Position numbers and translations under genes: made by a program
Source: Candidatus Moranbacteria bacterium GW2011_GWC2_40_12
GTDB lineage: Bacteria > Patescibacteriota > Minisyncoccia > Moranbacterales > UBA11712
DNA length: 64,000 nt
Assembly (NCBI GenBank): GCA_000995965.1
Contig: LBYD01000001.1
Location: 76,923 to 140,922 of the forward strand
Direction: 5' to 3'
Part shown: piece after piece, positions 4,550 to 37,701 of the stretch
How the letters are laid out: each line of letters begins with the position of its first letter
Numbering within the stretch: the first letter of the stretch is position 1
The notes under the pieces: generated by a model
Database searches by the model: none
Seen by the model: the letters and a program-made list of their open reading frames with translations, nothing else
What the model was told of the DNA's origin: nothing

Positions 4550-5125
4550 TTAGGATTTACTGAAGAAATATTTCTCAACTTCTTCGCAGATCCAGTGGAT
4601 TGCCATCAAGTGGATTTCCTGAATAAGGGGTATATCCCTTGACGGAATAATAATCGCGGCATCAGCCAAATTTTTCATTTTCCCCCCGTCATTTCCAAGG
4701 AGGGCTATGTTCTTGACCCCTTTCTTTTTAGCAGATTCCATGGCTTTTAGGCAATTGCCTGAATTTCCGCTGGTGCTGATAGAAAACAGGACATCATTTT
4801 CCCCTCCCAAACTTTCGACGAAGCGGAAAAATATGCCCTCGTAGCCGTAATCATTTCCGACGGCGGTCGTCGTTGCCAGATCGTACAAAGATATCGCGGG
4901 CAAAGCCGGCCGGTCAAAAGCAAAGCGTCCGACAAATTCTCCGACCATATGCGAGGCTTGTGTTGCGCTTCCTCCGTTCCCGCAGGTCATCAACTTTCCT
5001 CTGTTTTCTAGCGATTTGACAATAGTATTGCGCGCAGATTCGAGAGAATCCAGAAAAACTTTGTCTTTTGCCAGCAAATTTTGCAATTCGGCCGATTGCT
5101 TGAGCTTATTTTGCATTGATTTCAT
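4550..5125 (-). CDS. gmhA: Phosphoheptose isomerase (SIS domain)
   Basis: SIS-domain motifs are CGNGGSATQASH and ISTSGNS. Size is 191 aa. Confidence 0.8.
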   Translation of the reverse strand: MKSMQNKLKQSAELQNLLAKDKVFLDSLESARNTIVKSLENRGKLMTCGNGGSATQASHMVGEFVGRFAFDRPALPAISLYDLATTTAVGNDYGYEGIFFRFVESLGGENDVLFSISTSGNSGNCLKAMESAKKKGVKNIALLGNDGGKMKNLADAAIIIPSRDIPLIQEIHLMAIHWICEEVEKYFFSKS

Positions 5126-5175: not shown

Positions 5176-5925
5176 ATGGACAAAAGACAAATCAGCAGCG
5201 TGATTATTGTCGCGCTGGCGATCACTTTCATCGGAGCTTCAGTCGCGAGCTCGAAAATCAAGACGCTGAAGAAAATAAAGGCGGGAAGCATCACGAATCC
5301 CTATATTGCCGACGGTGCGGTGAATTCCGCCAAAATCCAGGATGGGACAGTTTCGAACGCCGATTATTCCGACAATTCCGTCACAACCGGGAAAATAGCG
5401 GATGGAGAGGTCAGCACGGACGATCTCGCGAATAATGCGGTAACAACAGGAAAAATTTCGGATGGGACGATCGCGGCAGGGGATTTGGCTGATAGCTCGG
5501 TGACTTCGGCAAAAATTTCGGACGGAGCTATTGTCAACACGGATATAAATTCCTCGGCGGCCATCGCCGGAACGAAAATTTCGCCAAATTTTGGAAGCCA
5601 GGATGTGACAACAACGGAAGATGTTAACGCGACAAACGGTGCCGGTAATTTCTTAAGAGTAACAGTCGGAGATACCCTTGCTGGAACAGGTGGCGGACTG
5701 TATGTCGATGACGAGCTTACCGCTAACGGACTTCAAATAAATCCTTCTGATGCGTCAACAGGTGACGCAGATTCAGCAACTACGCCAACCGATGAAACAT
5801 GCAATAGTAATAATTGGGGAACTTATGAATTTGTGGATGACACGGACAGTCCCGCTGGATGGCTGTGGATTTGCCAGCGATCCGGTCCCGATACCTATGC
5901 ATGGGTGAGAGTAAGCGGCCCTTGA
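5176..5925 (+). CDS. Membrane-anchored surface protein with about 9 tandem decapeptide repeats (consensus xSVTTGKIxDGxV), Ser/Thr/Asp-rich; candidate glycoprotein
   Basis: N-terminal TM anchor is VIIVALAITFIGASVA. Repeats of the form GAVNSAKIQDGTV, NSVTTGKIADGEV, NAVTTGKISDGTI and SSVTSAKISDGAI are visible. A strong terminator follows the gene. Confidence 0.6.
   Translation: MDKRQISSVIIVALAITFIGASVASSKIKTLKKIKAGSITNPYIADGAVNSAKIQDGTVSNADYSDNSVTTGKIADGEVSTDDLANNAVTTGKISDGTIAAGDLADSSVTSAKISDGAIVNTDINSSAAIAGTKISPNFGSQDVTTTEDVNATNGAGNFLRVTVGDTLAGTGGGLYVDDELTANGLQINPSDASTGDADSATTPTDETCNSNNWGTYEFVDDTDSPAGWLWICQRSGPDTYAWVRVSGP
5300..5580 (+). repeat. In-frame ~30-33 bp tandem coding repeats (about 9 copies) inside the surface-protein gene
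   Basis: The DNA repeats aaaaatttcggatgggacg / aaaaatttcggacggagct and similar units, encoding the KIxDGxV decapeptide. Confidence 0.5.
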
Positions 5926-6005: not shown

Positions 6006-6938
6006 CTATTTGTTATTGTTTTTCTGAAACCACTCGTATGTTTTCCTAATTCCCGTTTTGAAGTCGGTTTTTGGCGTCCATCTAAAATTCTCTTTTATTT
6101 TCGCGTAGGAAAGGCAGCTGGTTTTTTGCTCGCCGATTTTGGCTGGTCCGTGAACTTCTTTGAATTTTTTTCCGAAATACTTGTTTATTTCTCGGAATAT
6201 GCCGTTTACACTCGTTTCTTTGCCGGTGCTGGCATTATATATTCCTACTTTGTCGAATTTTTCAAGCGCCTGCAGATTTGCCGAAGTTATATCGTCAATG
6301 AAAATGAAGTCCCTCGTTTGTTTTCCACTTCCGTTGATTACGGGTTGCTTTCCATTCATCATCATGTGGAGAAAAATCGCAATTACATTTACTTCTCCAT
6401 GGGGGTTTTGCCGCGGTCCATACACATTCGGATAGCGAAGAGCGGCAAATTTCAGCCCGTGGACCTTGTTGGCATAATGCAAGAATTTTTCAACGGAAAG
6501 CTTTCCAACTCCGTAGGGAGAGACGGGCCAAGGCTCGACGGTTTCCGGAGTGGGGAGGACGCGCGTGTCGCCGTAGAGGGCACCGCCGGTTGACGAAAAT
6601 ATGAATTTTTTGACTTTGTATCGGCAGGCGAGTTCAATAAGATTCATGCTTGCCAAAATATTATTATTCCCTTCGAAAAGGGGATCGGCGACGGATTTTC
6701 GAAGGTCTATTTGCGCCGCGAGATGGAAAATGACCTCCGGTTTTTCTTTTTTGACGGTAGCTTCAGTTTTTTTGTGATTGGTGAGGTCAGCTTTGAAAAA
6801 TTTTGCCTCGGGATTGATATTTTTCTCAAATCCGGTGGAAAGATTATCAATCACCAAAACCCGATGCTTCTTTTCAACAAGAGCATCGACCAGATGCGAA
6901 CCAATGAATCCCGCGCCTCCCGTGACCAAGATTTTCAT
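6006..6938 (-). CDS. NAD-dependent sugar-nucleotide epimerase/dehydratase (extended SDR; GalE/UXS-like, HldD-like not excluded)
   Basis: The Rossmann motif VTGGAGFIGSHL is present. The catalytic YGVGK (YxxxK) and NVYGPRQ motifs are present. Confidence 0.8.
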   Translation of the reverse strand: MKILVTGGAGFIGSHLVDALVEKKHRVLVIDNLSTGFEKNINPEAKFFKADLTNHKKTEATVKKEKPEVIFHLAAQIDLRKSVADPLFEGNNNILASMNLIELACRYKVKKFIFSSTGGALYGDTRVLPTPETVEPWPVSPYGVGKLSVEKFLHYANKVHGLKFAALRYPNVYGPRQNPHGEVNVIAIFLHMMMNGKQPVINGSGKQTRDFIFIDDITSANLQALEKFDKVGIYNASTGKETSVNGIFREINKYFGKKFKEVHGPAKIGEQKTSCLSYAKIKENFRWTPKTDFKTGIRKTYEWFQKNNNK

Positions 6939-6989: not shown

Positions 6990-8582
6990 TTATTTTATCT
7001 TCCAAATGATTGAAATGGTTTTCGACTCGATATTTTGCGCGAGACCCCATTTTTTTTCAGACGGTTCCAGAAAATTGTTATCTATTTCAATTACATCGAA
7101 AGTCCTGCTTTTGACCAGATCGGTATACCAAGTTTTTTCTTCAGCGACGGGTCCCAGGATAAAGATGTTCTCATAGCCATTCTGGTCGATGTATTTCAGG
7201 TCATCTGCGTTAAAAAAATAGACGGCTTTTTTGCCAAAAAGAGATGTCATGGGATCGCTAAGAAGCGAGAATCCGCTGCCAGTGGCCATTCGATCGACCA
7301 AAATCAGATCATTCGGGCCGAATTTTTCGGCTATTTTTTCAATTTGGGGCAAAAGATCTCTATTTTCCGAAAGAGTGAGAAAGCGCCAGCTCACGACGAC
7401 GTTTGCCGTGATAAGGGCCGCAAGGGTGATATAGAGAAATATTTTGTGATAGAAAAACCGGTTGAGAAAATATATCGAGTAAAAAATCAGGATTGGAAAA
7501 ACGGCAAAAACGAACCGGCGCAGCATCCACGGGTCATCAAGAGAAATCATCGGTGAAATAAGATAGAAAAAAGCCGGAAAAGTGAGGAGTATTGGAATAT
7601 ATTCCGGCTTTAGCCAGTTTTTTTTCACTTTTTTTGCGAGCCAGCCGATTCCAGCGAGACCAAGAATGAGATAAGCCAAAATGTTATAGCTCAAAAACAC
7701 AGTCGCGAGATGCGAATACAGGCCAGATGAGGGTGCGGAATCTTTGGTTGAGTCGGGCAGAAAAGCTTTTGTGAAATTTTTGGCGCTGTCAGTCAGATCA
7801 TGATAATTCAGAAAAATATAGAGGGCAGAGAGCAACAATGTGGAAATTAGCAGATATTTTATGAAATTTTTTGAAAGCGGGATTGTATTTTTTCTGTTAA
7901 GGAAATAAATATAGCCGGCGGCAAGGAGATAAAAAACTATTCCCTCGATTCTGGTGAGCGCCGAAAGAGCGAAAAAGAGCAAAGAAATTTGCAGAAAGCG
8001 GTTATCCATATTTTTAGACGTTGGACGTCTAAAAGAAAGCAGAAAATAAATTCCCGCCCAGACGAGAAAAAGCATGAAGATTTCCGTGAGCGCGTATTTG
8101 GCAAACCAAGGGAAAGGAAAAAAAGTCGCGGCGATGAGAAACCCGAGAAGGGAAACTTTCTCGGAAAAAAACTGGCGAAGTGCGAGCCAAAATAATACCA
8201 GAAACAAAGCCAGGTGGAGGAAGTTGGCATACTGGATTCCCTTCAATCCCAACGCGGCATAAAAAACGGCCAGATAGGCGATAAAAGCTTTTGGGAAGCG
8301 GGTTATCAGCTTTCCATCCTTGGTATAGTCAAAACCGGGGAAGTTGAGGGCTCTGCCTTGCCCGTATTTTTGAAATAAGTCGTTTGATGAGGGAGCGGAG
8401 AAAACAAATGATTTGTGTTTTACGAGATCGATCGCGGCGGTTGCGATGGCGCCCTGATCTCGCCCCCCGAAAACAGTTGGAGTCGCGAAATAGCAAGTCG
8501 TGAAAGAAATAGCAAGAGAAATTGCGATGACTACGAGAAAATAATTCCTGTTTCCCTTTTTTTTGGGAGATTGGTGTTCCAT
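6990..8582 (-). CDS. Polytopic GT-C-type glycosyltransferase (PMT/ArnT-like, GT39/GT83-like) with C-terminal extracytoplasmic domain
   Basis: The start is placed at the ATG giving MEHQSPKKKGNRNYFLVVIAISL, since the longer ORF extends into a promoter-like region. More than 10 predicted TM helices. A GGRDQGAIATAAIDL loop-1 motif follows TM1. The gene is divergent from a GtrB-like GT2. Confidence 0.6.
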   Translation of the reverse strand: MEHQSPKKKGNRNYFLVVIAISLAISFTTCYFATPTVFGGRDQGAIATAAIDLVKHKSFVFSAPSSNDLFQKYGQGRALNFPGFDYTKDGKLITRFPKAFIAYLAVFYAALGLKGIQYANFLHLALFLVLFWLALRQFFSEKVSLLGFLIAATFFPFPWFAKYALTEIFMLFLVWAGIYFLLSFRRPTSKNMDNRFLQISLLFFALSALTRIEGIVFYLLAAGYIYFLNRKNTIPLSKNFIKYLLISTLLLSALYIFLNYHDLTDSAKNFTKAFLPDSTKDSAPSSGLYSHLATVFLSYNILAYLILGLAGIGWLAKKVKKNWLKPEYIPILLTFPAFFYLISPMISLDDPWMLRRFVFAVFPILIFYSIYFLNRFFYHKIFLYITLAALITANVVVSWRFLTLSENRDLLPQIEKIAEKFGPNDLILVDRMATGSGFSLLSDPMTSLFGKKAVYFFNADDLKYIDQNGYENIFILGPVAEEKTWYTDLVKSRTFDVIEIDNNFLEPSEKKWGLAQNIESKTISIIWKIK

Positions 8583-8593
8583 TGTATTTCTTA

Positions 8594-8622
8594 TTGACAA
8601 AAGTATAGTAATGTTATAGAAT
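8594..8622 (+). promoter_or_regulatory. Sigma-70-like promoter TTGACA-N17-TAGAAT
   Basis: ttattGACAaaagtatagtaatgttaTAGAATat gives a consensus -35 with exact 17-bp spacing to a good -10. It lies in the divergent region between the GT-C gene and the + strand operon. Confidence 0.45.
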
Positions 8623-8676
8623 ATAGTTTCAAAATTAACAAAAAAACAATAAATGAAAAGGGAGGCAGGCCGGTCA

Positions 8677-9111
8677 ATGAAAATAAAATATTCAATGAAA
8701 AGTTTGAAAAAGTTTCTGGCCAACGCTTTTTCCGGGGGAAATCCGGAAAAAATCCTCGAGGATGTCCATTGCGAGCTCACCCGGAGAAATTTCGCGGTTG
8801 AGAGGTATGAGGACGTTTCCGGGATGGGGATTCGGGGCAGTTTGGACATCTACCCATCGGTTCAGGTCAATGTCTATATTCCCTTCACTTCCGCGTGGGA
8901 GCTGCAGGCGCTTCTCTTCTTCGAGGAGGATGACCAGCTCGAATTGGTGAGCCAGGTCCCCGATTTCAAGGAAAAAATCCTTTTGAGGCGCTATTCCCTG
9001 CCAATTAATCCCCGGGAAATCGCCAGAGCTTTGAGCACGGACGCCCTGCTTCTTGGCGCATTGCTGGCAACTATTCTCAAGCGCCAGGAAATTGAGGCAC
9101 GGCATGAATAG
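8677..9111 (+). CDS. Hypothetical protein (144 aa)
   Basis: aagGGAGGcaggccggtcaATG is an SD-like site 10 nt upstream of the ATG. It follows the promoter above. The alternative reverse-strand ORF 8692..9150 is less protein-like. Confidence 0.3.
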   Translation: MKIKYSMKSLKKFLANAFSGGNPEKILEDVHCELTRRNFAVERYEDVSGMGIRGSLDIYPSVQVNVYIPFTSAWELQALLFFEEDDQLELVSQVPDFKEKILLRRYSLPINPREIARALSTDALLLGALLATILKRQEIEARHE

Positions 9112-9202
9112 GGAGCGGGGCGGAGCGCCATTGGCGTCTTTGCCCCCCAATTTTCAATCAACATTTTTTGCTATAATCCTGACTTTACGTTAACATAAAT
9201 AC

Positions 9203-10150
9203 ATGAATGAATCCAGTCAGAAACCATATATATCCGTGATTGTTCCGCTTTATGACGAAGAGGGGAATGTGAGAGAATTGCACCAGAAAATAGTCGAAGC
9301 CTGCCGGGGACTTGGCAAGACTCTCGAAATTATTTTCATCGACGATGGAAGCACGGACAAGACGAATGAAATTTGCCGCGCATTGAGCCCCCTGAAGCTC
9401 ATCACCTTTCGAAAAAATTTCGGGCAGACAGCCGCCTTTGACGCGGGGATCAAAAATTCTTCGGGCGAAATCATTATCACAATGGACGGCGATCTTCAGA
9501 ATGATCCGGCGGACATCAAGCTGCTATTGGATAAATTAAGCGAAGGATACGACGTTGTTGCCGGCTGGCGGAAAAATAGGCAGGATTCCTTTATGAAGAA
9601 TCTTGCCTCGCGCGCGGCCAATATTGCCCGAAAATTTCTCATCAACGACGGAATTCATGACAGCGGGTGCAGTCTCAAGGCTTTCAAAAGGGAATGTTTT
9701 GACGATCTGGATTTGTATGGCGAGATGCACCGCTTTATCCCGGCACTCCTCAAGGTGCAGGGGTTCAAAGTGGCGGAAGTTCCAGTCAGCCATCATTCGC
9801 GCAAGAGCGGGGTGACGAAATACAACTGGAAGCGGGGAGTAAAGGGAATCGTTGATATGATCTCGGTCTGGTTCTGGAAAAAATACGCCAATCGGCCTTT
9901 GCATCTTTTTGGAGCGGGGGGTCTTGGGATATTTTTCCTGGGAATTTTGTCGGGAGCGGCGCTGGTCACGGCGCGCGTTTTCTATGCCGTCCCGATGTCG
10001 AACAAAATCTGGCCGCTCATCGCTGTTTTCCTGGTCCTGATGGGAATCCAACTCTTCATTTTCGGTCTTCTGGCTGATATCGCGGTCAAGAATTATTATA
10101 AAACGCAGGGGAAGATGAATTATAAAATAAGAGAGATTATCGAGAATTAA
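9203..10150 (+). CDS. GT2 polyprenyl-phosphate sugar synthase (GtrB/ArnC/DPM1-like undecaprenyl-phosphate glycosyltransferase) with C-terminal TM helices
   Basis: The N-terminus begins ISVIVPLYDEEGN. The DxD motif IFIDDGSTD is present. GQTAAFDAG and ITMDGDLQNDP are characteristic motifs. Two C-terminal TM segments are predicted. Confidence 0.8.
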   Translation: MNESSQKPYISVIVPLYDEEGNVRELHQKIVEACRGLGKTLEIIFIDDGSTDKTNEICRALSPLKLITFRKNFGQTAAFDAGIKNSSGEIIITMDGDLQNDPADIKLLLDKLSEGYDVVAGWRKNRQDSFMKNLASRAANIARKFLINDGIHDSGCSLKAFKRECFDDLDLYGEMHRFIPALLKVQGFKVAEVPVSHHSRKSGVTKYNWKRGVKGIVDMISVWFWKKYANRPLHLFGAGGLGIFFLGILSGAALVTARVFYAVPMSNKIWPLIAVFLVLMGIQLFIFGLLADIAVKNYYKTQGKMNYKIREIIEN

Positions 10151-11334
10151 TGAAAATTCTCACCATCGCCGCGACGCCTTTTTTTTCTGACCGGGGCGCT
10201 CATATGCGGATACTTAACGAAGCGAAATATCTCAAAAAATTGGGCGCCGAGGTGCGCCTTTGCGCTTATCATATTGGGGAAAATGTGCCGGGACTTGATA
10301 TCGAGCGTATCAAGGGCCCGAATAGCTACAAAAAAACATCTCCCGGTTTTTCCTGGGGAAAAATATGGCTGGACTGGAAACTCCTTTTTTTGGTTCGGCG
10401 GGAAATTAAAACATTTCAACCCGACGCGATCCACGCGCATCTTTGGGAGGGACTGGCTATCGGATATTTGGCGAAAAAATTGGCTTTTTGCGGAAAAATT
10501 CCGATAGTATTTGATTTGCAGGGGAATATCGATGAGGAATTTCAAAGTTACAGCCGAAAAAAATCAATCGCGCGGAAATTCTTTGTTTGGTTTTCAAAGA
10601 GAGTTATCAATTGGGCCGATAAAATTGTTGTCAGCAGTGAGAATGTCAAACTTCATCGTAGCGGTTTAATCGCTACGATCGTGCGGGATGGGATTGATTT
10701 GGATTTATTTCAAAATCTGCAAGACTTATCTAAAGTAGAATCGGATAAAATCGATAAAATTAAAAAGTGGGCTGGAGATAGTAAATTGCTGGTCTATATC
10801 GGAGGTTTGAGCGATAATAAGGGAGTCGGGGAGCTTTTGGAAGTTTTTGGAAAACTTGGCTTTGAGAAATTCCCCGACGAAAAGTCGGGGAAGGAAAAAG
10901 CCGAGCTTTGGGAAAAGAATAATTGGAAACTTCTATTGGGCGGATTTGGAAGTGACGAGGAAAAATACAAAAAATATATTACTGAAAAAAAACTGGAAAA
11001 ATCCGTGTATTTTGCCGGAAAAATTCCGTATTTTTCTTTGGCGCGCTATCTGGCATTGGCGGACGCTGGAATCGATCCCAAGAGCGGTTCGACCGAATCG
11101 AGCGGAAAGATAGCCAATCTTATGGCGGCGGGACTGCCAATAATTTGCTTCGGCACCAAATTTAATCGGGCGAGATTGGGCGAAAAGGGAATTTATTTGA
11201 AAAATATGAATGAATTGGCCGAAAAAATGAATACTTTTCAGGATACGGGAAAAATAGAATATGACATTGAAAATTTTAGCGAGGAAAAAGAAGCTCGGAA
11301 ATTGCTTGAAATTTTCCTATTACTTGTCAAATGA
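10150..11334 (+). CDS. GT4 (GT-B fold) glycosyltransferase
   Basis: TAATG stop/start overlap with the upstream gene. N-terminal MKILTIAATPFFSDRGAH. The C-terminal half carries the GT4 EX7E-like region. Confidence 0.7.
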   Translation: MKILTIAATPFFSDRGAHMRILNEAKYLKKLGAEVRLCAYHIGENVPGLDIERIKGPNSYKKTSPGFSWGKIWLDWKLLFLVRREIKTFQPDAIHAHLWEGLAIGYLAKKLAFCGKIPIVFDLQGNIDEEFQSYSRKKSIARKFFVWFSKRVINWADKIVVSSENVKLHRSGLIATIVRDGIDLDLFQNLQDLSKVESDKIDKIKKWAGDSKLLVYIGGLSDNKGVGELLEVFGKLGFEKFPDEKSGKEKAELWEKNNWKLLLGGFGSDEEKYKKYITEKKLEKSVYFAGKIPYFSLARYLALADAGIDPKSGSTESSGKIANLMAAGLPIICFGTKFNRARLGEKGIYLKNMNELAEKMNTFQDTGKIEYDIENFSEEKEARKLLEIFLLLVK

Positions 11335-12518
11335 AAACACTTCTCATAAAAACCGGAAAAGCGCTGAACGCCTTGAAGCAAGAAGGGCTGGTCCGCGGCG
11401 GAAAAAGGGTGGCAAAATCTTTTATAGCGCAATTTGGCCGGGTGCGGCCGGGGGATATTTTGTTTGTGACGCCGGGAGTGGGAGACAGCGCGATGTTTCG
11501 AGCGCATAACCAGGCTGAAGAGATGCGCCTTCATGAGTTCAAATGCAGTGTGACGATTCAGGATAATCCTTTTTTGCCGCGCTACGCGGATAAATTCAAA
11601 ATTTTCATTTTCCATCGGCCGGTTTGGACGAAAAATGTCGCAAAACTTTTTGAAAACGCCAAAAAACTTGGAAAGGAAATTATTTTCGAAACAGACGACC
11701 TGGTTTTCGACCCGAAACATGTTCAGGCGACGGAGCATTACAAAAAAATGAATATTTTTGAGCGTAAGCAATATGAAAAGGGAGCAGGAGAGGAGATCCT
11801 GAGGGATACGTATGTCAAGGCCTGCGCGACAACAACAAGCTTTCTCGCGAAAATTTTGGAAAAATACGGCAAAAAAGTCTTCATCTCGAAAAATAAGCTG
11901 TCGCTCAAAGATCTTGAAATCGCAGAAAATCTCTTGACGAAGGCTAAGCCTTCGTCAGATAATATTGGCTTGAGAATAGGATATTTTTCCGGAACCAAAG
12001 GGCATGATAAGAATTTTGCGACGATAGAAAATGCCCTGGTCAGGATTCTCGAAAAATACCCCGATATAAAATTATTTTTAGCCGGTCCGCTCAACATCAG
12101 TGAAAAATTCGGGAAGTTTCAAAGCCGGATCGAAAAATTTCCATTTGCGTTGCGCGAGGAGCACTTCAAAAATATCTCTGGAGTTGATATCAACATTATT
12201 CCTCTGGAAAAAAACAATGATTTTTGTGAGGCGAAATCGGAACTCAAATTTTTTGAAGCTGGGATTTTGGGAGTGCCCTCGGTGGCGGTAGACAATCAGA
12301 CTTATCGAGACGCGATTGATGATGGCGTTGACAGCTTTTTGGCCGGGAGTGAAAATGAGTGGGAAGAAAAAATTGAAAGGCTGATAGTTGACGGAGATCT
12401 TCGAAAAAATATGGGAAAAGAAGCGAGAGAAAAAACTATCCGCGAATATACGACAAAAAATAGCCACAGCAGCGAATATTATGATTATCTGCGGCTGAAA
12501 TTGAAAATGCAAAAGTAA
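11331..12518 (+). CDS. GT4 (GT-B fold) glycosyltransferase
   Basis: ATGA overlap with the upstream gene. C-terminal FFEAGILGVPSVAVDNQTYRDAIDDGVDSFL is a GT4 nucleotide-sugar binding motif. Confidence 0.7.
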   Translation: MKTLLIKTGKALNALKQEGLVRGGKRVAKSFIAQFGRVRPGDILFVTPGVGDSAMFRAHNQAEEMRLHEFKCSVTIQDNPFLPRYADKFKIFIFHRPVWTKNVAKLFENAKKLGKEIIFETDDLVFDPKHVQATEHYKKMNIFERKQYEKGAGEEILRDTYVKACATTTSFLAKILEKYGKKVFISKNKLSLKDLEIAENLLTKAKPSSDNIGLRIGYFSGTKGHDKNFATIENALVRILEKYPDIKLFLAGPLNISEKFGKFQSRIEKFPFALREEHFKNISGVDINIIPLEKNNDFCEAKSELKFFEAGILGVPSVAVDNQTYRDAIDDGVDSFLAGSENEWEEKIERLIVDGDLRKNMGKEAREKTIREYTTKNSHSSEYYDYLRLKLKMQK

Positions 12519-12610
12519 AAATTGTTATTTTTCGAATAGTCTGTCTTCGCACGAATGTGCGGACAAACGCGATACCTGCTTAATCGCCTTACACTTTTCA
12601 GATCAGATTT

Positions 12611-13606
12611 ATGGAAAATACCGCCATTGTCATTGTCAACTGGAACGGAAAGAAGTATCTCAAGGACTGCTTCGATTCGCTCCAAAAACAAACCTATGAA
12701 AATTTCAGGGTTATTTTTGTGGACAACGGGTCAACAGACGATTCAGTCAATTTTGTAAAAAATAACTACTTGGAAACTAAGTTTCCAAGTGTAAAAATAG
12801 TTCGATTAGAAAGGAATACCGGTTTCTGTTTTGGATATAACGTGGGCATCAAGTCGGCGCTTGAAGATCCTAAGATAAAATACGTAATTGTTCTCAATAA
12901 TGACACCAGACTGGATGAAAAATACGTCGAAGAATTGGCAAGATGCGCGAAAAAATATCCGGGTACAGGTTCCGTCCAGCCGAAAGTTTTGAATTTTTTT
13001 GAAAGGGAAAAAATTGATTGCGCCGGAATTTATATCACTCGCGACGGGACGGCCCATAACAGGGGATACGGAAGAGATGCAAGAAGATATAGTGAAGAAA
13101 AAGAAATTTTCGGCGCGAACGGGACAGCCTCGCTTTTTACCCGGGAGGCGCTTGAGAAAACAGCCCTTCTGGAGCATAATTATTTCGACAATGACCATTT
13201 TGTTTTCTATGAAGACGTGGATCTGGCCTGGCGGATGAAAAACGCGGGATTTAAGTCGTATTTTTGCCCGCAGGCGGTCGTATATCACGTCCACAGCGGA
13301 ACTGCCGGAAAAGGTTCGCTGATGAAAGCATATTATCTCCACCGAAACTATTTCTTCACTGTCATAAAAAATTATCCTTTTGGAAAAATGGCAAAAACGT
13401 TTTTTTGGCGATTTTTCAGCTATCTGAAGCTGGTCGCGAATATATTCAATAAAAAGAAACGGGAGACGGAATTCGTAAAAGGGCGGAGCAAAGCTGAAGT
13501 CGCCCTTGTGATTCTCAAGGCATGGGGGAGCGTCTTATGCAATTTATCGAGAATGATGAGAAAAAGAATGTTTATCAGAAAAAAGATTCATGAAAATCAA
13601 ATTTGA
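12611..13606 (+). CDS. GT2 glycosyltransferase (rhamnosyl/WbbL-like)
   Basis: IVIVNWNGKKYLKDCFDSL, VDNGSTDDS and YEDVDLAWR motifs are present. Confidence 0.75.
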   Translation: MENTAIVIVNWNGKKYLKDCFDSLQKQTYENFRVIFVDNGSTDDSVNFVKNNYLETKFPSVKIVRLERNTGFCFGYNVGIKSALEDPKIKYVIVLNNDTRLDEKYVEELARCAKKYPGTGSVQPKVLNFFEREKIDCAGIYITRDGTAHNRGYGRDARRYSEEKEIFGANGTASLFTREALEKTALLEHNYFDNDHFVFYEDVDLAWRMKNAGFKSYFCPQAVVYHVHSGTAGKGSLMKAYYLHRNYFFTVIKNYPFGKMAKTFFWRFFSYLKLVANIFNKKKRETEFVKGRSKAEVALVILKAWGSVLCNLSRMMRKRMFIRKKIHENQI

Positions 13607-15248
13607 CTGGAAAATAGTTTTGTTTTCGCTTGTCATCGCCCTCGCAATTTTTCTTCGCGTTTGGCATTTTTCGGACTGGCTTTTTTTCAAAATGGACCAG
13701 GCGCGGGATGCGTCAATTATAAAACAGGCCTTTGAGCTGGGCCCTGGCTGGCTTCCGCTTCTCGGTCCCAAAGCCGGCGGAACGGACCTGAACCTCGGGC
13801 CGGCCTTTTACTATTTCCAATATTTGGCGGCATCGCTTTTCCAAAGCGTCCATCCGGCAGTGCTGGCTTTTCCTGACCTCTTATTCGGAATACTTTCCAT
13901 ACCGCTTTTCTTCATATTTGCCAAAAAATATTTTTCCCGAAACTGGTCAATGATTCTGGCAAGCCTTTTTGCCGTTTCCTTTCTGGGAATCCAATATTCG
14001 CGTTTTTCCTGGAATCCAAACGGGCTCGTATTTTTCAATCTTCTGTTTTTTCTGTCGCTTCTAAATGTATTTGATAAAAATATAAAATACCATCTTCGCT
14101 GGGTGATTCTCGCCGGGATTTCCTTTGCAGTTTCGACCCAGCTTCACTTCCTTTCTTTTCTTACTTTGCCGGTGATTGCGGCGATATTTATAATATTCAA
14201 TTGGAAAGAGTCGAGAAAGGCGCTAAATTGGAGATACGTACTCTTTTTTTTGGCTATCATTCTTCTTATATATCTGCCGGTGATTCTGAATGAAATTGTT
14301 TCCAAGGGGGAAAATACCCATCAATTCATGTTGGCGCTCAAAGAAAAGCCGTCGGAGCACAGTTTTTGGAAAAACATAAAACGAGATATCCGCTATTGGG
14401 GTCAGAATTGGTTTTTGATTCTCACCAGTTGGATCAGCCGCAAGGGCGGAATAAACGGCGCGATTTTGTCATGGCTCGGCGCGATTTTTCCGGCCATTTA
14501 TCTCGGATACAAATCTTTTCGACGGGAGGAAAACGCCGTAAAGAAGAATTTTGTGCTGATTTCGCTTCTCTGGTTTTCTATATATTTTCTCGCTTATATC
14601 CCGATTGCCTATCAAATCCGGCCAAGATTTTTCCTGCCGCTTCTGGTGCTGCCTTTTATTTTCATCGGATATTTGGCGGTGTTTTTTTGGGAAAAAAAGC
14701 ATAAATTTTGGAAAATTTGCGTCTCTGCGGCCATTCTTTTGATTTTTTTGGGGAATTTGACCGGGACCTATTTTTGGTTTGAGGAAATAAGATCAGCCCA
14801 AAAAAAGGGGACTTACCCTTGGCGGACAATCATTCTAAAGGCCAAGGACGGAGTTGTGCTTTGGCACTTGGAGAAGGCGGCAAATTATATGAAAGAAAAT
14901 TGCCAGGCGAAGATAATATATTTTGACGCCCCTTCCGAATATAAAAGGCCGGTAAAATATTTGTTGAATCTGCGGGGAACAGAAGCCGCTTCGATTGAGA
15001 ATCTCAAAACAGGAGAACAAAAACAGTGTGTTTTCTCTTTGGGATTAACTCGGGCGAAAAAATTGTCCACGAGAGAGAAACTGGAAGCCGAATTCGATGT
15101 TGGCGAACAGCAAAAAATCGGCGCGCTGAGTGTCTATAAGCTTTCCCTCAAAGAAAATATTTCAGGCCAAACCTTGCCGTCTTACAAAGCAGGTGCGGAA
15201 GAGAATGAGAAATCGAATCGTATTTTTTGGAAAGATTTGTGGAAATAA
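13590..15248 (+). CDS. GT-C glycosyltransferase, ArnT/PMT family (GT83/GT39-like)
   Basis: Overlaps the upstream gene by 17 nt. The FFKMDQARDASII motif matches ArnT-type loop-1 DxxRDA. About 11 TM helices. It has a C-terminal soluble domain. Confidence 0.7.
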   Translation: MKIKFDWKIVLFSLVIALAIFLRVWHFSDWLFFKMDQARDASIIKQAFELGPGWLPLLGPKAGGTDLNLGPAFYYFQYLAASLFQSVHPAVLAFPDLLFGILSIPLFFIFAKKYFSRNWSMILASLFAVSFLGIQYSRFSWNPNGLVFFNLLFFLSLLNVFDKNIKYHLRWVILAGISFAVSTQLHFLSFLTLPVIAAIFIIFNWKESRKALNWRYVLFFLAIILLIYLPVILNEIVSKGENTHQFMLALKEKPSEHSFWKNIKRDIRYWGQNWFLILTSWISRKGGINGAILSWLGAIFPAIYLGYKSFRREENAVKKNFVLISLLWFSIYFLAYIPIAYQIRPRFFLPLLVLPFIFIGYLAVFFWEKKHKFWKICVSAAILLIFLGNLTGTYFWFEEIRSAQKKGTYPWRTIILKAKDGVVLWHLEKAANYMKENCQAKIIYFDAPSEYKRPVKYLLNLRGTEAASIENLKTGEQKQCVFSLGLTRAKKLSTREKLEAEFDVGEQQKIGALSVYKLSLKENISGQTLPSYKAGAEENEKSNRIFWKDLWK

Positions 15249-15314
15249 AACGGATTTTGATGTAAAATTAATCAGCCTGGATTCAAGTCTGGAAATTTTG
15301 AATTCTTGTTTTTT

Positions 15315-16043
15315 ATGAAAAATAAAGCAATTTCAGTTGTCATTCCCTGTTACAACGAGGAAAAGACAATCCAAAAAAATTTGTTGAAGGTTCACAATTA
15401 TCTCAAGGACCGTTTTGGGGTTTTCGAGATAATTGTCGTAAACGATGGCAGCAATGACGGGACGCTCAAGGAAATAAAAAAAATGGAGGACGATCTGCAT
15501 CTTCGCATAATTGATAATCAGGAAAATAAAGGAAAAGGCAAAGTTGTCAAGCAGGGGATTTTGGAGAGTTCCTGTGATCTTGTTATGTTTTTGGATGCTG
15601 ATCTGGGAATTCCCATAGAAGAGCTTCAAAAGTTTGTGCCTGAATTTGATCGCGGATATGATATCATTATTGCCTCAAGATTTGTTCCCGGTCTTCGCGT
15701 CATAAGGCCGGTTCTTTGGCACCGGCAGACCATGGAAAAAATTTTTCGTTTGCTCCGGTTGGCGATAATATGTGACCGGAACGTCAAGGATACGCAGTGC
15801 GGATTCAAGGTTTTTCAGAGGAAGGCAGCTATGGATATTTTTTCCCGAGTGACGGTCGGAAGGTTTGCTTTTGACGCAGAGGTAATCTTCATTGCCAATA
15901 AATTGAAATATAAAATCAAAGAGCTTCCTATTTCGCTTCAAAATCCGCCTAACAGCCATATCAGACTTTTTCGCGATCCCCTGAATATGGCGCTGGACCT
16001 GCTCAAAATCCGCTTGAATGCCTGGAGGGGAAAATACAAATAA
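15315..16043 (+). CDS. Soluble GT2 dolichyl/undecaprenyl-phosphate hexose synthase (DPM1/CsbB-like)
   Basis: SVVIPCYNEE, DxD-type IVVNDGSNDGT, FLDADLGIP and QCGFKVF motifs are present. No TM segments. Immediately followed by a GT-C-like membrane protein. Confidence 0.75.
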   Translation: MKNKAISVVIPCYNEEKTIQKNLLKVHNYLKDRFGVFEIIVVNDGSNDGTLKEIKKMEDDLHLRIIDNQENKGKGKVVKQGILESSCDLVMFLDADLGIPIEELQKFVPEFDRGYDIIIASRFVPGLRVIRPVLWHRQTMEKIFRLLRLAIICDRNVKDTQCGFKVFQRKAAMDIFSRVTVGRFAFDAEVIFIANKLKYKIKELPISLQNPPNSHIRLFRDPLNMALDLLKIRLNAWRGKYK

Positions 16044-18281
16044 ATGACGAAGGGAAAAAATCAAATGAAAAAACTCTGGAGCAACGAAAAAATCAGAATT
16101 ATTTTCTTCTACGCGCTTTTGACGGTAATTTTAACCTGGCCCTTTGCCTGGAATTTTTTCTCTTCTGTTCCGAGTCTTGGATCTGATACGATGCAGGTGA
16201 TCGGTGTAGCCGGGGAAAGAATGAATGTTCTCAAAGATCTGGGTGTTTTCAAAGGATCTGTTGAGCTTATGAAGCGATCGGAATTCAATATAGTCACTCT
16301 TTATGCCTTTTTTCAGCTCATTTTCGGCCGGATTGCCGGATATAATCTACTATTTTTCGCATCGTTTGTCCTTTCTGGTTTTGGAATGTATCTTCTTGCC
16401 TATTATTTCACCAAAAGCAAGCCGGCCTCGCTCATTGCCGGAATTATTTTCGCTTTTTTGCCGTTCCATGTCCACAATTCTTTGAGCACCAATGTTGGAA
16501 CAATGCATCAGGAGTGGCTGCCGTTTTTTGCGTTGTATCTTTTCCGGTTTTTCGATAATCTCAAGGCGAAAAACTTTCTATTGGCCGGTCTTTTTCTGGG
16601 ACTGATTGCCTTTACCGAACACCAACTTTTTGCTTTCACACTTATTTTTGTGTCTTTTTTTGTCGTATTCAAAATTTTCACCCAGCCGAGGATATTTCTC
16701 AAAAGAAAATTCTGGCTGTATGCAGTTGTCAGTTTCGTGGTCCTTTCGGCTGTTTCTCTTTTTATGTTCCGTTCACTTTTTGAGATCGCTTTTTCGGGCA
16801 ATAACTATCTTGATCCCGGATTCAAAGCGGCCGTGAAATATTCAAATGACGCCCTGAGTGTTTTCGTTCCGCCGAATTTCCATTCCTTTTGGCCCGGAGC
16901 CTTTTCGGGCTTGCGGGAAACATTCGAGCGGCGGACAGACAGCTCATTTTCGGCTTATGTCGGATTTCTGGTTCTTCTCTTGTCTGCCGCCGCATTTTTC
17001 AGGGACAGAGTATCCAAGAAATGGTTTTGGCTGGCGGTGGCAATCGGTTTTTATGTCCTTTCGCTCGGTCCGCATCTGCATTTCAAAGGAGAACTAGACC
17101 CGCCAGTCAAAATGCCATATCTTCTCGCCTATGAATATCTGCCGTTTTTCAACAACATTCGGACAGTTGGCAGATTGTTTGTGTTTTCGGCAGTGGCATT
17201 TTCGGTTTTGGCGGCGTGGGGAAGCGCGTATGTGATATTAAAAATAAGAAATAAAAGGGAAGAAATAAAAAATGAATTATTAAACGGCGATATCTCAAAA
17301 AGCGAACAAGTCGATATTTTTGGATCTAATCGCGGGCAAAAAATTTTATTTTTTGCGGTCAGCGCAGTTATCATTCTTGAATTTCTCGCAATTCCTGTCA
17401 AAACAAACTCACTCTTGCACTCCTCATTTTATGAAAAACTCGGCCAGGAAAAAGAAGATTATAACATTCTGGAGGTTCCCGGGAGCACGGATTATGACTT
17501 TGCCTCGCGCGATTTGGTTTGGAAGAGCATCCATCGAAAAAACACTATCAATGGTTATGATTTTGCCCGGGTGATTGACGATCACTACACATTTCAACGC
17601 GGAACCCCTGTCATTCGGACGCTGCTTTATGATATTCCGGAAGGGAACGAGAAACAAAATGACCGTGACATCATGAAGGATTCATATTACAAAATTTCAA
17701 ATGAAATCTTGAATTATTATAATATCCGATACGTTGTCTTGGACAAAGAGGGCCTCAAGGGAAATCCGGAAAAGGGAGACGCGGACCAGTTTTATTCCGC
17801 AAGGGCATACGCGCAAAATGTCTTGAAATGCAAAAGTGAATTCGAGGATGACTTTTTATTCGCTTGCGAGGTGAGCCGGGACGCCGCACCAAGGCATATG
17901 TTTGTGGCAATGGACTATTCCAACAAGCATTGGGTTGGAAAAGACAAAGGAAAAGACGGAATCCGGCGCTGGGCCGAGTCCGGTGCGGGAGTGAAAATTG
18001 TGAACATGTCGCCGGAGCCCCAAGAGGGAAAATTTAATTTTAAAGTAAAACTATATAAGCCGATACGGGTGATTGCGCTTCTGAACGGCGCGCCTGTTTT
18101 CGACAAATATATCACTCAATTTTCTGAAAAAACATACGTATCGGTTGATATTTCCGGCATAAAGTCCGGAGAAAATGAAATTATTTTTGAAGTCCGCGCC
18201 GCAAACGGTTTGGAAATTCGCTCTGAAAAAAAGTCAGACGTAGCGACGATATATGACGTGGAAGTGGAAGCGAAGAAATAG
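16044..18281 (+). CDS. Large polytopic membrane protein with C-terminal extracytoplasmic domain, YfhO/GT-C-like candidate glycosyltransferase
   Basis: 745 aa with at least 12 TM helices in the N-terminal 430 aa and a roughly 300-aa soluble C-terminus. Start codon abuts the stop of the DPM1-like gene. The arrangement recalls CsbB-YfhO and GtrB-GtrC pairs. Confidence 0.55.
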   Translation: MTKGKNQMKKLWSNEKIRIIFFYALLTVILTWPFAWNFFSSVPSLGSDTMQVIGVAGERMNVLKDLGVFKGSVELMKRSEFNIVTLYAFFQLIFGRIAGYNLLFFASFVLSGFGMYLLAYYFTKSKPASLIAGIIFAFLPFHVHNSLSTNVGTMHQEWLPFFALYLFRFFDNLKAKNFLLAGLFLGLIAFTEHQLFAFTLIFVSFFVVFKIFTQPRIFLKRKFWLYAVVSFVVLSAVSLFMFRSLFEIAFSGNNYLDPGFKAAVKYSNDALSVFVPPNFHSFWPGAFSGLRETFERRTDSSFSAYVGFLVLLLSAAAFFRDRVSKKWFWLAVAIGFYVLSLGPHLHFKGELDPPVKMPYLLAYEYLPFFNNIRTVGRLFVFSAVAFSVLAAWGSAYVILKIRNKREEIKNELLNGDISKSEQVDIFGSNRGQKILFFAVSAVIILEFLAIPVKTNSLLHSSFYEKLGQEKEDYNILEVPGSTDYDFASRDLVWKSIHRKNTINGYDFARVIDDHYTFQRGTPVIRTLLYDIPEGNEKQNDRDIMKDSYYKISNEILNYYNIRYVVLDKEGLKGNPEKGDADQFYSARAYAQNVLKCKSEFEDDFLFACEVSRDAAPRHMFVAMDYSNKHWVGKDKGKDGIRRWAESGAGVKIVNMSPEPQEGKFNFKVKLYKPIRVIALLNGAPVFDKYITQFSEKTYVSVDISGIKSGENEIIFEVRAANGLEIRSEKKSDVATIYDVEVEAKK

Positions 18282-18317
18282 CTTGAAAATTGGGTGAGAA
18301 AATGCTATACTTTATTC

Positions 18318-18863
18318 ATGCAAAAGCGCTTGTTTGTTGCAATAAGCCTTCCCGAGGATATAAGAAAGCGCCTGTTTCGGTTTGCCGAAAAAGAATACAA
18401 AAACTTGCCCGTAAAGTGGATCCGGCAGGAAAATATTCATCTGACGCTGAACTTTTTGGGATACATCCTGGATGAAAATGTCTTGGATATCTGCCAGTCC
18501 GTTCAAAATGCCGCTGAAAATATCAACTCTTTTGAGATGCGATTTACTGGCGCAGAATTGGGGCCAAACAGCAAGTCAAAAAAAATGATCTGGGTAACGG
18601 GAGAGAAAAGCAGAGAACTTTCGAAGCTCAAAAATGAATTGGACAAGTCATTGGGATTTTTCGAGAGAGAAATGAAAGATTTCAAGCCTCATATTACGAT
18701 TGGAAGAGTCCGGAAAAAGGAGTGGAAAAAAATCCATCCCGAGCCTTCGGTGGACAGGAACTTCAGGTTTTCAATTCCGGTTTCATCGGTTGAAATTTTT
18801 GAAAGCAGATTTGAAAAGGGAAAAAGAGTTTATTATAAATTGGAATCGTTTTCGCTAAGGTGA
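18318..18863 (+). CDS. thpR: RNA 2-prime,3-prime-cyclic phosphodiesterase / 2-prime-5-prime RNA ligase (2H family, ThpR/LigT)
   Basis: Two H-x-T/S-x motifs are present: HLTLNFLG and HITIGRV. Start is the ATG at 18318, preceded 9 nt upstream by tatact. Confidence 0.7.
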   Translation: MQKRLFVAISLPEDIRKRLFRFAEKEYKNLPVKWIRQENIHLTLNFLGYILDENVLDICQSVQNAAENINSFEMRFTGAELGPNSKSKKMIWVTGEKSRELSKLKNELDKSLGFFEREMKDFKPHITIGRVRKKEWKKIHPEPSVDRNFRFSIPVSSVEIFESRFEKGKRVYYKLESFSLR

Positions 18864-18881
18864 AAATGCGAATTATCCCGA

Positions 18882-19619
18882 ATGCAAAAAAGAATGAGCG
18901 CGACAGCAAAATTATTAGGCATGAAGATTAGCAATCTTTCAGCGGCTGAAATAAACGATTGGATAAAAATTATCCTGAGTAATCCGCCTGAACAGCGATT
19001 CGTGGTTTCGCTCAATCCGGAAATCATTCTGAAGGGGCATTGCGACGAAGGTTATAAAAAAATACTAAGCAGCGCCGATTTGGCGCTTTGCGACGGATTC
19101 GGAGTGAAGTGCGCGGCTTGGCTCAAGGGCGAAAAAATTAAAACAAGGTACACCGGAGTTGATCTGGTCGAACGCTCTCTGAAATTGGCAAAAGAAAACA
19201 ATATCAGCGCGCTGGTTGTTGTTTCGAAAAACAGTCTGAGCAGTCCCGAAGAGATAGAGAAGGGGATAAGAGACAAATATGATTTCGGGGCGCGGGCAAA
19301 ATATTGGGATGACGAAAGGTTTTTTGAATGCGAAGACGCGAAGAAAGCAGAAATAGTTTTTGTGAATTTTGGCGCTCCCCATCAGGAAAAATTCATTTTT
19401 GAAAATAAAAGGAATTTTCCGAAAGCAAAATTTTTGGCGGGAGTGGGAGGGACGTTTGATTTTCTCACAGGAAAAATCAGGCGGGCTCCACAGTGGATGA
19501 GAAAGGCGGGTCTGGAATGGTTTTGGCGAATGCTCCAGGAGCCCAAGAGACTAAAGCGCATTATAAATGCAGTCGTTGTGTTTCCTTGGGTTGTTCTAAT
19601 AAATAAAAAAAATAAATGA
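18882..19619 (+). CDS. WecB/TagA/CpsF family glycosyltransferase (GT26)
   Basis: VSLNPEIIL, FVNFGAPHQEKF and GLEWFWRMLQEPKRLKR are signature motifs of the TagA/WecG family. Confidence 0.7.
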   Translation: MQKRMSATAKLLGMKISNLSAAEINDWIKIILSNPPEQRFVVSLNPEIILKGHCDEGYKKILSSADLALCDGFGVKCAAWLKGEKIKTRYTGVDLVERSLKLAKENNISALVVVSKNSLSSPEEIEKGIRDKYDFGARAKYWDDERFFECEDAKKAEIVFVNFGAPHQEKFIFENKRNFPKAKFLAGVGGTFDFLTGKIRRAPQWMRKAGLEWFWRMLQEPKRLKRIINAVVVFPWVVLINKKNK

Positions 19620-20137
19620 CGAGACAGAGAATATTTTCATTATCCATTTCCACGTTCCTTTGCATAATTTTGGGTTTTTTTGTGATGAGAGGAGGCGTCG
19701 ATTGGGATGAAAAACTGGCTTATTTTTTGCATACCGCCTTATTTGTATATTTTTTGGCGGTTCTCATCTCTAATCAGCAGTATGAGGAAGATACAATGGC
19801 CAAAATCGAAAGGATTTTCAGCTCGGCGCTCGTTTCTTTCACTTTTTTTTTCCAGATGATATATGCTCCGATGGCCCGATATTTTTTTGGAAATATGATC
19901 CATAAGGCGGCTTTTTTTTCCGACACCCTGGCGCTTTTCCTGTTTCTTTTTTTCGCTTTCATATTTGTTATAGCGGCGGCGGCGGCGAGCAGTTTTTCGA
20001 GCACCGGATTCCTCTCCGGCTGGAAATTTTTCAACAATCCAACAGCCTATTTCGTCCTTCGCAATCTCTGGCTGGCAGCTGTTTTGATGGCGGTTTTCCT
20101 GTATTGGAAAAATCCTTTCCTAATTATAACAGTCTGA
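19616..20137 (+). CDS. Hypothetical integral membrane protein (4-5 TM)
   Basis: Hydrophobic segments throughout. ATGA overlap with the upstream gene. Confidence 0.45.
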   Translation: MTRQRIFSLSISTFLCIILGFFVMRGGVDWDEKLAYFLHTALFVYFLAVLISNQQYEEDTMAKIERIFSSALVSFTFFFQMIYAPMARYFFGNMIHKAAFFSDTLALFLFLFFAFIFVIAAAAASSFSSTGFLSGWKFFNNPTAYFVLRNLWLAAVLMAVFLYWKNPFLIITV

Positions 20138-20144
20138 ATTATAT

Positions 20145-21650: not shown

Positions 21651-21674
21651 ATCCTTACGTTCATATAATTCAAA

Positions 21675-26444: not shown

Positions 26445-26466
26445 CCTATGCGGATTGCGAATCTCA

Positions 26467-32238: not shown

Positions 32239-32301
32239 CTCTCACATATTAATTTCCCATTTTCAGCTTCCAGCGCGTTTAGCCAGATTAACCGATTTCT
32301 T

Positions 32302-33360: not shown

Positions 33361-33508
33361 ATGTTTTTAATGCTGGTTAATTTGCGCACAAAATAAAAAT
33401 AATTAGCCTTGGAGGCATCATTCACGAGTATACTATAAAAAAATATTTATGGCAAAACAAATCGAGACATAAAATAATACGCGCCCAGGGAGATGTCCTT
33501 GGGCGCGG

Positions 33509-36091: not shown

Positions 36092-36220
36092 TCGGGATCA
36101 CCTCCTTTCCCTTTCGGGATATTTTTTTGTCAAAGGGCAGTTGCCTGTTTAAAAAACAGAGCCCTCCTGCTCCTTTGTATAAACTAAAATATTATGCGTT
36201 TTTTGGCAAATTTACGGCTG

Positions 36221-36249: not shown

Positions 36250-36269
36250 CGAGTCCGGGATAAAATTGA

Positions 36270-37679: not shown

Positions 37680-37701
37680 AAACTCGCGAATTTAGAACGA
37701 A

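Follow-up and report, generated by a model that had tools for sequence, protein, structure and literature searches.

A 64,000-nucleotide stretch of contig LBYD01000001.1 from Candidatus Moranbacteria bacterium GW2011_GWC2_40_12 (hereinafter, the window, to which all coordinates refer) encodes three large polytopic membrane proteins, denoted here A (530 aa; 6990-8582, minus strand), B (552 aa; 13590-15248, plus strand) and C (745 aa; 16044-18281, plus strand), and two family 2 glycosyltransferases (GT2), GT2_315 (315 aa; 9203-10150, plus strand) and GT2_245 (242-245 aa; 15306/15315-16043, plus strand). All three membrane proteins belong to the GT-C glycosyltransferases, A and C by structural model and fold and B via the families of its homologues, and the two GT2 enzymes look, by sequence, like polyprenyl-phosphate-sugar synthases; three GT-C transferases and two predicted lipid-sugar synthases are thereby packed in about 12 kb. 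With a probability of about 0.7, we interpret this region as a conserved cell-envelope glycan assembly locus that performs transmembrane glycosylation, the favored acceptor being a wall polysaccharide. The open reading frames (ORFs) reported in a preliminary description of this DNA are all confirmed in the ORF list of the window. Proteins A, B and C are each 100% identical to proteins of Candidatus Moranbacteria bacterium GW2011_GWC1_45_18, and the source databases label A and C 'hypothetical'.

The AlphaFold (AF2) models of A and C both have a predicted local distance difference test (pLDDT) score of 91.4, with a predicted TM-score (pTM) of 0.89 for C, and every PDB match found with Foldseek for either protein at E<=1e-3 is a GT-C enzyme. 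The top matches of A are ALG12 (1e-7), ArnT (1e-6), ALG9, AglB, PglB and AftA, with TM-scores no higher than 0.57, and the 22 matches of C are to STT3/PglB, AftD, DPY19, EmbA/B/C and ArnT. As modeled, C would consist of an N-terminal GT-C membrane module, an extracytoplasmic alpha/beta domain and a C-terminal beta-sandwich (about residues 600-745) resembling carbohydrate-binding modules (CBM); the beta-sandwich independently matches CBM4/6/29/35/36. Protein B can be placed in the same class, as judged from its relatives: 38 of 69 homologues match the Pfam family PMT_2 and 12 match PMT, public sources call the homologues 'GT family 39' or 'ArnT-like', and the database protein identical to B has a precomputed PF13231 match. 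In the Pfam scan of B itself, there is no PMT_2 match at E<=0.01, only a TMEM260-like match at 0.0047, and a match to Agl23 is marginal. Both A (61.4 bits, 7e-17) and B (22.7 bits) match the NCBIfam family LA_3751/LA_3752 (NF047440) below its 200-bit threshold. Profile-profile comparison (hhalign) over the transmembrane (TM) core links A with B at 94.8% probability, C with A at 88% and C with B at 68%.

Each of the three families has a conserved aspartate right after the first TM segment (TM1) and conserved arginines further along. In the family alignments (A2 for A, A3 for B, A1 and A4 for C), these are an invariant 'GGRDQG' motif (D42) in the first loop past TM1 of A, together with R211/E213 and D349/W352/R355/R356 (61 sequences); the invariant D36/R39/D40 in 'MDQARD' of B (69 sequences); and D48 in 'GSDTMQ' of C, which is present in at least 90% of 75 sequences and is invariant in sets of 28 and 40 sequences down to 21% identity, with R373/R377 as further invariant residues. 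The N-terminal tails are rich in lysine and arginine (4 of 14, 3 of 8 and 5 of 16 residues), so that, by the positive-inside rule, the loop with the aspartate would lie outside the membrane. Thus, the GT-C nature of all three proteins, as originally proposed, holds, and the alternative that they are transporters or polymerases devoid of GT-C motifs is rejected on the fold searches and the loop-1 aspartate. No further paralogs of A, B or C were detected in the window with hidden Markov models (HMMs) of the three families. A 627-aa membrane protein (42045-43928) was compared as a potential fourth GT-C and is not supported as one (hhalign probability 2-6%).

Protein C had been described as YfhO/GtrC-like, which does not survive as a family assignment. 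The YfhO profile (PF09586) has no match in C at E<=0.01 or in any of 28 close relatives, and reaches two of 40 distant relatives (best 3.8e-5); one remote homolog (P0106) carries PF09586. The other profile searches suggested at the outset gave a mixed outcome: PMT_2 is found in the homologs of B, A itself has no Pfam match at all, PMT and PMT_2 included (PMT_2 is weakly matched by 21 of 61 of its homologs), and C has a marginal, sub-threshold PMT_2 match (19.3 bits vs the cut-off of 26.1). GT-C_AftD weakly matches just one of 28 homologs of C. By analogy, C could well be YfhO-like in its mode of action while its sequence lies outside the YfhO family. Its own family is large, with 1,246 clusters at 50% identity when collected at E<=1e-30 and 5,817 at E<=1e-10, and is sparsely covered by Pfam; a few homologs have precomputed DUF6311 matches.

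Of the GT2 enzymes, GT2_315 (Pfam GT2, 8.6e-31) aligns end to end with the PDB sequences of ArnC (6e-46, residues 9-313), GtrB (1e-25) and DPMS (1e-19), and its best NCBIfam matches, both over the full length, are ArnC (1.2e-49; 169 vs 529 bits) and PgfS (7e-42; 144 vs 500 bits); hydrophobic segments at residues 241-290 correspond to two C-terminal TM helices. The seven best PDB matches of GT2_245 (Pfam GT2, 1e-30) are to DPMS (4e-19), GtrB (2.6e-14) and ArnC (5e-14), and its NCBIfam matches are PgfS (2e-21), ArnC (8e-17), Dol-P-hexose transferase (1e-14) and PpgS (1.4e-10). Hydropathy shows no TM segment in this DPM1/PpgS-like protein, which is predicted to need membrane association. Its ATG at 15315 yields 242 aa, the most frequent length among the orthologs, and its stop codon is immediately followed by the start codon (ATG) of C. 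The third enzyme of this fold class, GT2_331 (331 aa; 12611-13606, plus strand), had been paired with B as a donor synthase, a role that we reject: it has no match to ArnC, GtrB or DPMS among PDB sequences at E<=1e-3, it has no TM segment, its PDB matches are GalT1, TagF and chondroitin synthase, and in NCBIfam it matches a rhamnosyltransferase (TIGR01556, 1.9e-16, full length) as well as PgaC, EpsD and GlfT1. By these similarities to WbbL, GlfT1, GalT1 and TagF, GT2_331 is classed as a cytoplasmic GT2 of the classical type, with an acceptor that may or may not be lipid-linked, which leaves two donor synthases for three GT-Cs. Accordingly, of the three modules originally proposed, GT2_315 with A and GT2_245 with C stand as pairs of a predicted lipid-phosphate-sugar synthase and a GT-C, whereas GT2_331 with B does not.

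The genes from GT2_315 onwards belong to a co-directional string on the plus strand (9203-23003). GT2_315 is followed by GT4a, a cytoplasmic GT-B glycosyltransferase (10150-11334; Pfam Glyco_transf_4 and Glycos_transf_1), GT4b (11331-12518; Glycos_transf_1, 1.8e-9), GT2_331, B, GT2_245 and C, and then by LigT (18294-18863), a WecG/TagA-family glycosyltransferase (18882-19619; Pfam Glyco_tran_WecG, 1.3e-39), a hydrophobic polytopic membrane protein of 173 aa (19616-20137), GluRS (20145-21650) and a C39-like peptidase (21675-23003). On the minus strand, divergent from this string, A is followed in the same direction by a GalE-like NAD-dependent sugar-nucleotide epimerase (6006-6938; Pfam Epimerase, 2.8e-58). 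Five gene pairs overlap or abut (10150/10150, 11331/11334, 13590/13606, 16043/16044 and 19616/19619), with an overlap of 1 nt between GT4a and the preceding stop codon and of 4 nt between GT4a and GT4b and between the WecG/TagA gene and the gene for the 173-aa protein.

A scan of species-representative genomes, with ORFs labeled by comparison with the proteins of the window and with the HMMs of families A, B and C, yielded 34 loci (hereinafter identified by L numbers), nearly all from Moranbacteria or Parcubacteria. Seventeen distinct loci form an orthologous group, with C at 57-81% identity, and share a common order in which the epimerase and A diverge from GT2_315, which is followed by GtrA in some loci, GT4a, GT4b, up to two extra B-like GT-Cs, GT2_331, B, GT2_245, C, LigT (not always present), WecG, the 173-aa membrane protein, GluRS and C39; given this shared order, the co-localization is not a matter of chance. 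GT2_245 lies directly 5' of C in 15 of the 16 loci with upstream sequence, GT2_331 precedes B in 14 of 14, and A followed by the epimerase is divergent from GT2_315 in all six loci (the window, L005, L011, L020, L039 and L040). In the exception, L020 (CAZIWW010000002.1, a metagenome-assembled genome (MAG) labeled uncultured 'Bdellovibrionales'), GT4b is directly followed by C, and no GT2_331, B or GT2_245 was labeled. Several MAGs with the cluster are labeled Bdellovibrionales, Bathyarchaeia or Fimivivens, which looks like mis-binning or mislabeling. The originally proposed logic of a lipid-phosphate-sugar synthase serving an extracytoplasmic GT-C is borne out by the two synthases of the ArnC/GtrB/DPM1 type and by the retention of their pairs (15 of 16 and six of six). 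The expected co-occurrence of the pairs across genomes holds within the 17 orthologous loci but not at greater evolutionary distances: the pairings are real inside the orthologous lineage and are no universal rule. The other 17 loci are paralogous, with C-like proteins at 32-40% identity; here, the C-like gene is found within arrays of B-like GT-Cs, the gene before it usually encodes a B-like GT-C of 590 aa, and no DPM1-like GT2 was found within 10 kb of it. Distant homologs of A (34-38% identity; L004 and L041) keep GT4a, GT4b and the epimerase beside them, but no ArnC-like GT2.

Given these assignments, a plausible sequence of events can be outlined. A lipid-linked glycan would be built on the cytoplasmic side of the membrane by the two GT4s, the WbbL-like GT2_331 and the WecG/TagA-like enzyme. 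The WecG/TagA-like enzyme exceeds the cut-off of its NCBIfam superfamily (TIGR00696, 109 vs 69 bits), also matches TarA (2.8e-32) and is kept downstream of C in the orthologous loci; characterized homologs of WecG/TagA use an acceptor of the undecaprenyl-diphosphate (Und-PP)-GlcNAc type. GT4a and GT4b are both kept in the orthologous loci, and GT4a is also found beside distant homologs of A. The membrane-anchored GT2_315 and the TM-less GT2_245 are expected to load single sugars onto a polyprenyl, presumably undecaprenyl, phosphate, with one nucleotide sugar probably provided by the epimerase, which matches GalE (1.5e-59) and a heptose epimerase (8.5e-40) in NCBIfam, both under the cut-off. 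The lipid-phosphate-sugars would then be flipped by a flippase that this cluster does not encode; in the relatives, the cluster includes GtrA, and in the window, a Wzx-like protein is encoded at 48034-49530. Outside the membrane, A, B and C would use these donors, via the loop-1 aspartate, to extend or decorate the acceptor. A wall-linked secondary polysaccharide is the most likely acceptor in view of the CBM-like domain of C, the TagA-like enzyme and an LCP ligase encoded nearby (32302-33360); the latter would attach this polymer to peptidoglycan, and the CBM-like domain could hold it.

The match of GT2_315 to Streptococcus mutans PgfS over the full length (7e-42) and the combination of a GT2, a GT-C and a GalE-like epimerase, which mirrors the pgfS-pgfM1-pgfE-pgfM2 operon (PMC5856776, PMC12041528), raise the serious alternative of protein O-glycosylation of the Pgf/PMT kind, whereby GT2_315, the epimerase and A, possibly with B, would modify not a polysaccharide but Ser/Thr-rich regions of proteins that are secreted or reside in the membrane, for instance pilins, S-layer proteins or a nearby repeat protein. 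The last of these (5176-5925, plus strand; 249 aa) has an N-terminal anchor or signal and Ser/Thr/Asp-rich 'KIxDGxV...' repeats, with no family match, and is possibly a surface protein and a candidate glycosylation target; homologs of B are, moreover, named GT39, the protein O-mannosyltransferase family. Nevertheless, GT2_315 scores 144 bits against the 500-bit PgfS equivalog cut-off, A has no Pfam PMT match, the repeat protein was not seen beside the cluster in the relatives, the WecG/TagA enzyme, the GT4s and the WbbL-like GT2 are builders of lipid-linked glycans, and the CBM-like domain of C suggests a glycan acceptor, so that we consider a protein acceptor unlikely.

The GT4 enzymes bear on a different possibility, namely, that the product is a lipoglycan comparable to phosphatidylinositol mannosides (PIM), lipomannan (LM) and lipoarabinomannan (LAM): GT4a and GT4b would make a glycolipid on the cytoplasmic face, which, once flipped, would be elongated by the GT-Cs with polyprenyl-phosphate-sugars in the manner of lipomannan. 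GT4a weakly matches monoglucosyl-diacylglycerol synthase (6.9e-8, NCBIfam), and across evolutionary distance A is most persistently linked to GT4a, GT4b and the epimerase (L004 and L041). A DPM1-like synthase with several GT-Cs follows the established mycobacterial logic of Ppm1 with PimE, MptA, MptB and EmbC, and AftA, AftB, AftD, Emb and PimE are all among the Foldseek matches. Genes of the PIM type have also been proposed in a Saccharibacterium (PMC6031116). However, the GT4 matches are weak and generic, the WecG/TagA enzyme and the LCP ligase indicate a wall-attached polymer linked through Und-PP, and no phosphatidylinositol-related gene was noticed in the window; a lipoglycan product therefore appears decidedly improbable.

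Finally, one or more of the GT-C enzymes could act like oligosaccharyltransferases (OSTs), transferring en bloc an Und-PP-oligosaccharide built by the GT4s, GT2_331 and WecG, in which case the lipid-phosphate-monosaccharide synthases would not be needed. In structure, the nearest neighbors of C are STT3/PglB, and AglB/PglB are among those of A; translational coupling links B with the cytoplasmic GT2_331 rather than with a donor synthase; and the distant homologs of A have no adjoining ArnC-like GT2. The TM-scores to OSTs are, however, just 0.4-0.55, with all GT-C classes matching similarly, there is no STT3 Pfam match, B is related in sequence to PMT_2/ArnT, which are users of monosaccharide donors, and the tight association of GT2_245 with C (15 of 16) favors a monosaccharide donor for C. 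We accordingly give en bloc transfer very little weight.

Several observations weigh against the interpretation of the region as a locus for transmembrane assembly of a wall polysaccharide. The profiles of A, B and C have no relative in the PDB by sequence, in either direct or profile searches, so that these searches are uninformative and the classification rests on predicted structures, and the structural models cover A and C but not B. The hydropathy segmentation yielded overlapping segments and was used for the presence or absence of TM segments only, the topology being judged from the positive-inside rule. All NCBIfam equivalog scores are far under the cut-offs, and hence neither a sugar nor an acceptor can be assigned; the pairings of GT2 with GT-C are not kept in more distant genomes, which makes a one-to-one donor pairing uncertain. 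No GtrA-type flippase was found among the window ORFs of at least 70 aa (phmmer with the GtrA of a relative, E<=10), and no initiating phosphoglycosyltransferase of the WecA/TagO type was found among the 50 largest window ORFs that were scanned. Lastly, LigT and GluRS interleave with the cluster, and the string of co-directional genes thus contains more than a glycan operon.

With regard to the flippase, GtrA (PF04138) lies inside the orthologous cluster of L040 and, by phmmer, also in L006, L007, L009, L012 and L013, and in the source genome it could be located elsewhere. The 173-aa membrane protein, which has no Pfam or NCBIfam match, has an ortholog after WecG in 15 distinct loci; speculatively, its position makes it a candidate flippase or a partner of the TM-less GT2_245. 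Other candidates for flipping or recruitment, by position only, are a DUF2062 protein (26380-26985) and the Wzx-like protein.

The locus is the same kind of system as the CsbB/YfhO, Gtr, Arn, Pgf and Ppm1-GT-C pathways, outside those specific families. The preliminary description had framed it as eukaryote- or actinobacteria-style, a framing that is too narrow because systems with this logic are common across Firmicutes and Proteobacteria (PMC8035078). The Gram-positive systems in question are CsbB/GtcA/YfhO, GtlA/GtcA/GtlB, CsdAB/CD/EF with CflA of Lactococcus lactis, and GacI/GacJ/GacK/GacL of Streptococcus pyogenes; L. lactis has three GT-A/GT-C pairs with a single flippase, the TM-less GacI of S. 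pyogenes acts with a small membrane partner and a Wzx-type flippase, and an extracellular carbohydrate-binding domain has been proposed for YfhO (PMC8035078). As in these systems, the Moranbacteria locus combines GT-A (GT2) synthases, predicted to make undecaprenyl-phosphate sugars, with polytopic GT-Cs, has several such pairs in one organism, includes TM-anchored and TM-less GT-A variants and a large GT-C with a predicted extracellular carbohydrate-binding domain, and is associated with TagA-like and LCP genes of a wall-polymer locus. Unlike them, it has no GtrA/GtcA in the window, C lies outside YfhO, two predicted synthases face three GT-Cs, and the host belongs to the Candidate Phyla Radiation (CPR). 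The resemblance to S. mutans Pgf (PgfS, PgfM1, PgfE and PgfM2) and to GtrB/PgtC2 consists in the joint presence of a GT2, a GT-C and a GalE-like epimerase (PMC5856776, PMC12041528); GT2_315, however, is far under the PgfS equivalog cut-off, and no kinship of A or C to the named Pgf GT-Cs was detected, no direct comparison having been made.

The ArnC/ArnT pair and the GtrA/GtrB/GtrC system of Shigella phages are similar in that the solved structures nearest to GT2_315 are ArnC and GtrB, the aspartate of the predicted extracellular loop 1 (EL1) is conserved, and A superposes on ArnT with a TM-score of 0.57. By contrast, ArnA, ArnB and ArnD are missing among the annotated window ORFs, the ArnC equivalog score is not reached, and no GtrA is found in the window. 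In general, Patescibacteria are considered to have neither an outer membrane nor lipid A. The locus also resembles mycobacterial arabinogalactan and LM/LAM assembly in having a cytoplasmic WbbL/GlfT1-like GT2 together with GT4s, an LCP ligase nearby (compare Lcp1), a TM-less DPM1-like synthase similar to the catalytic domain of Ppm1, and multiple GT-Cs, one of them with a CBM-like domain as in AftD/Emb; it differs in that no protein belongs by sequence to the Aft, Emb or Mpt families, genes of the decaprenylphosphoryl-arabinose (DPA) pathway were not seen in the window, and the phylum is unrelated.

The genomes of CPR bacteria, or Patescibacteria, are very small, a life attached to other cells is assumed for these bacteria, and the chemistry of their envelopes is essentially uncharted. 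Against this background, the conservation of a set of three GT-Cs with two lipid-sugar synthases, along with the arrays in relatives that comprise as many as nine GT-C genes, implies that surface glycans are a major investment for these cells. The largest B-like array, that of L033, has nine genes over 18.7 kb, and L023 and L024 follow with eight each; across L023, L024, L033, L036, L038 and L003, they consist of 6-9 consecutive PMT_2-like GT-C genes over 11-19 kb. The arrays of L002 and L003 adjoin a Wzx-like flippase and a thymidylate kinase, with RtcB beyond in L002 and Wzy_C in L003; in the window, the trio of RtcB, thymidylate kinase and Wzx (45488-49530) has no GT-C array alongside. A far-reaching extension of our interpretation, which we regard as quite doubtful, is that Moranbacteria and related Patescibacteria assemble a good part of their surface glycan outside the membrane with expanded sets of GT-Cs. 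If that were the case, C, with a dedicated donor supplied by a TM-less DPM1-like synthase, would represent a large family of GT-Cs with a CBM-like domain, and the paralogous GT-C arrays (nine genes at most, in about 19 kb) would serve to vary the surface glycan of cells that depend on a host, comparably to the assembly of mycobacterial arabinogalactan and LAM. The mechanism as such is already well established in other bacteria. The gain consists in the better annotation of A and C and in a defined pair of a GT2 with a GT-C (15315-18281), and the GT-C arrays of the relatives are the most notable by-product. In the literature searched, we found no functional studies on GT-C enzymes of Patescibacteria; several copies of 'dolichol-phosphate mannosyltransferase' in CPR genomes are mentioned there in passing.

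The divergent region between A and GT2_315 (8583-9202) spans 620 bp. The ORF of A extends to 8849, the start at 8582 being in agreement with the 530-aa NCBI protein and with the closest relatives. Upstream of this start, the frame stays open for 89 codons (8583-8849, minus strand), and the stretch is weakly similar to the extra N-terminal hydrophobic segment 'MKIFLGILVFFLAFGWL...' of A homologs of about 580 aa; the extension is also missing in the closest relatives, and the stretch looks like a decayed relic. On the plus strand, an ORF of 152 aa (8653-9111) has a homolog at the matching position in L011 (phmmer 7.8e-29, vs 2.6e-8 for the mirror frame) and may be an unannotated gene; it has no Pfam match and no counterpart in L005, L039 or L040. 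Of the sigma-70-like promoter pairs in the region, the strongest is at 8594-8632.

Beyond the cluster, the window (G+C content of 41-50%) encodes a complete ADP-heptose-type pathway as separate genes, namely, GmhA (4550-5125), the HldE kinase (3398-4435), GmhB (2804-3352) and the HldE adenylyltransferase domain (2276-2761), together with a gene similar to GT9 heptosyltransferases (10-1347). Such a gene set looks unusual in a bacterium believed to have no lipopolysaccharide, and it suggests that heptose is part of a surface glycan. A second glycan-assembly region (31417-49530) includes, in addition to the LCP ligase and the Wzx-like flippase, a GT2 (31417-32238), four GT4s (36528-37679, 39685-40845, 40906-42018 and 44350-45486), a Wzy_C protein (37702-39360) and the 627-aa polytopic protein, which weakly matches DUF1616. 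Within the same coordinates, the minus strand encodes an 860-aa protein of the sigma-70 family (33509-36091), in which the sigma domains stop near residue 547 and the C-terminal extension that follows, about 310 aa long, matches no family. A marginal Rfam tRNA match (56729-56794, plus strand; 30.9 bits vs the cut-off of 29) has no corresponding ARAGORN call.

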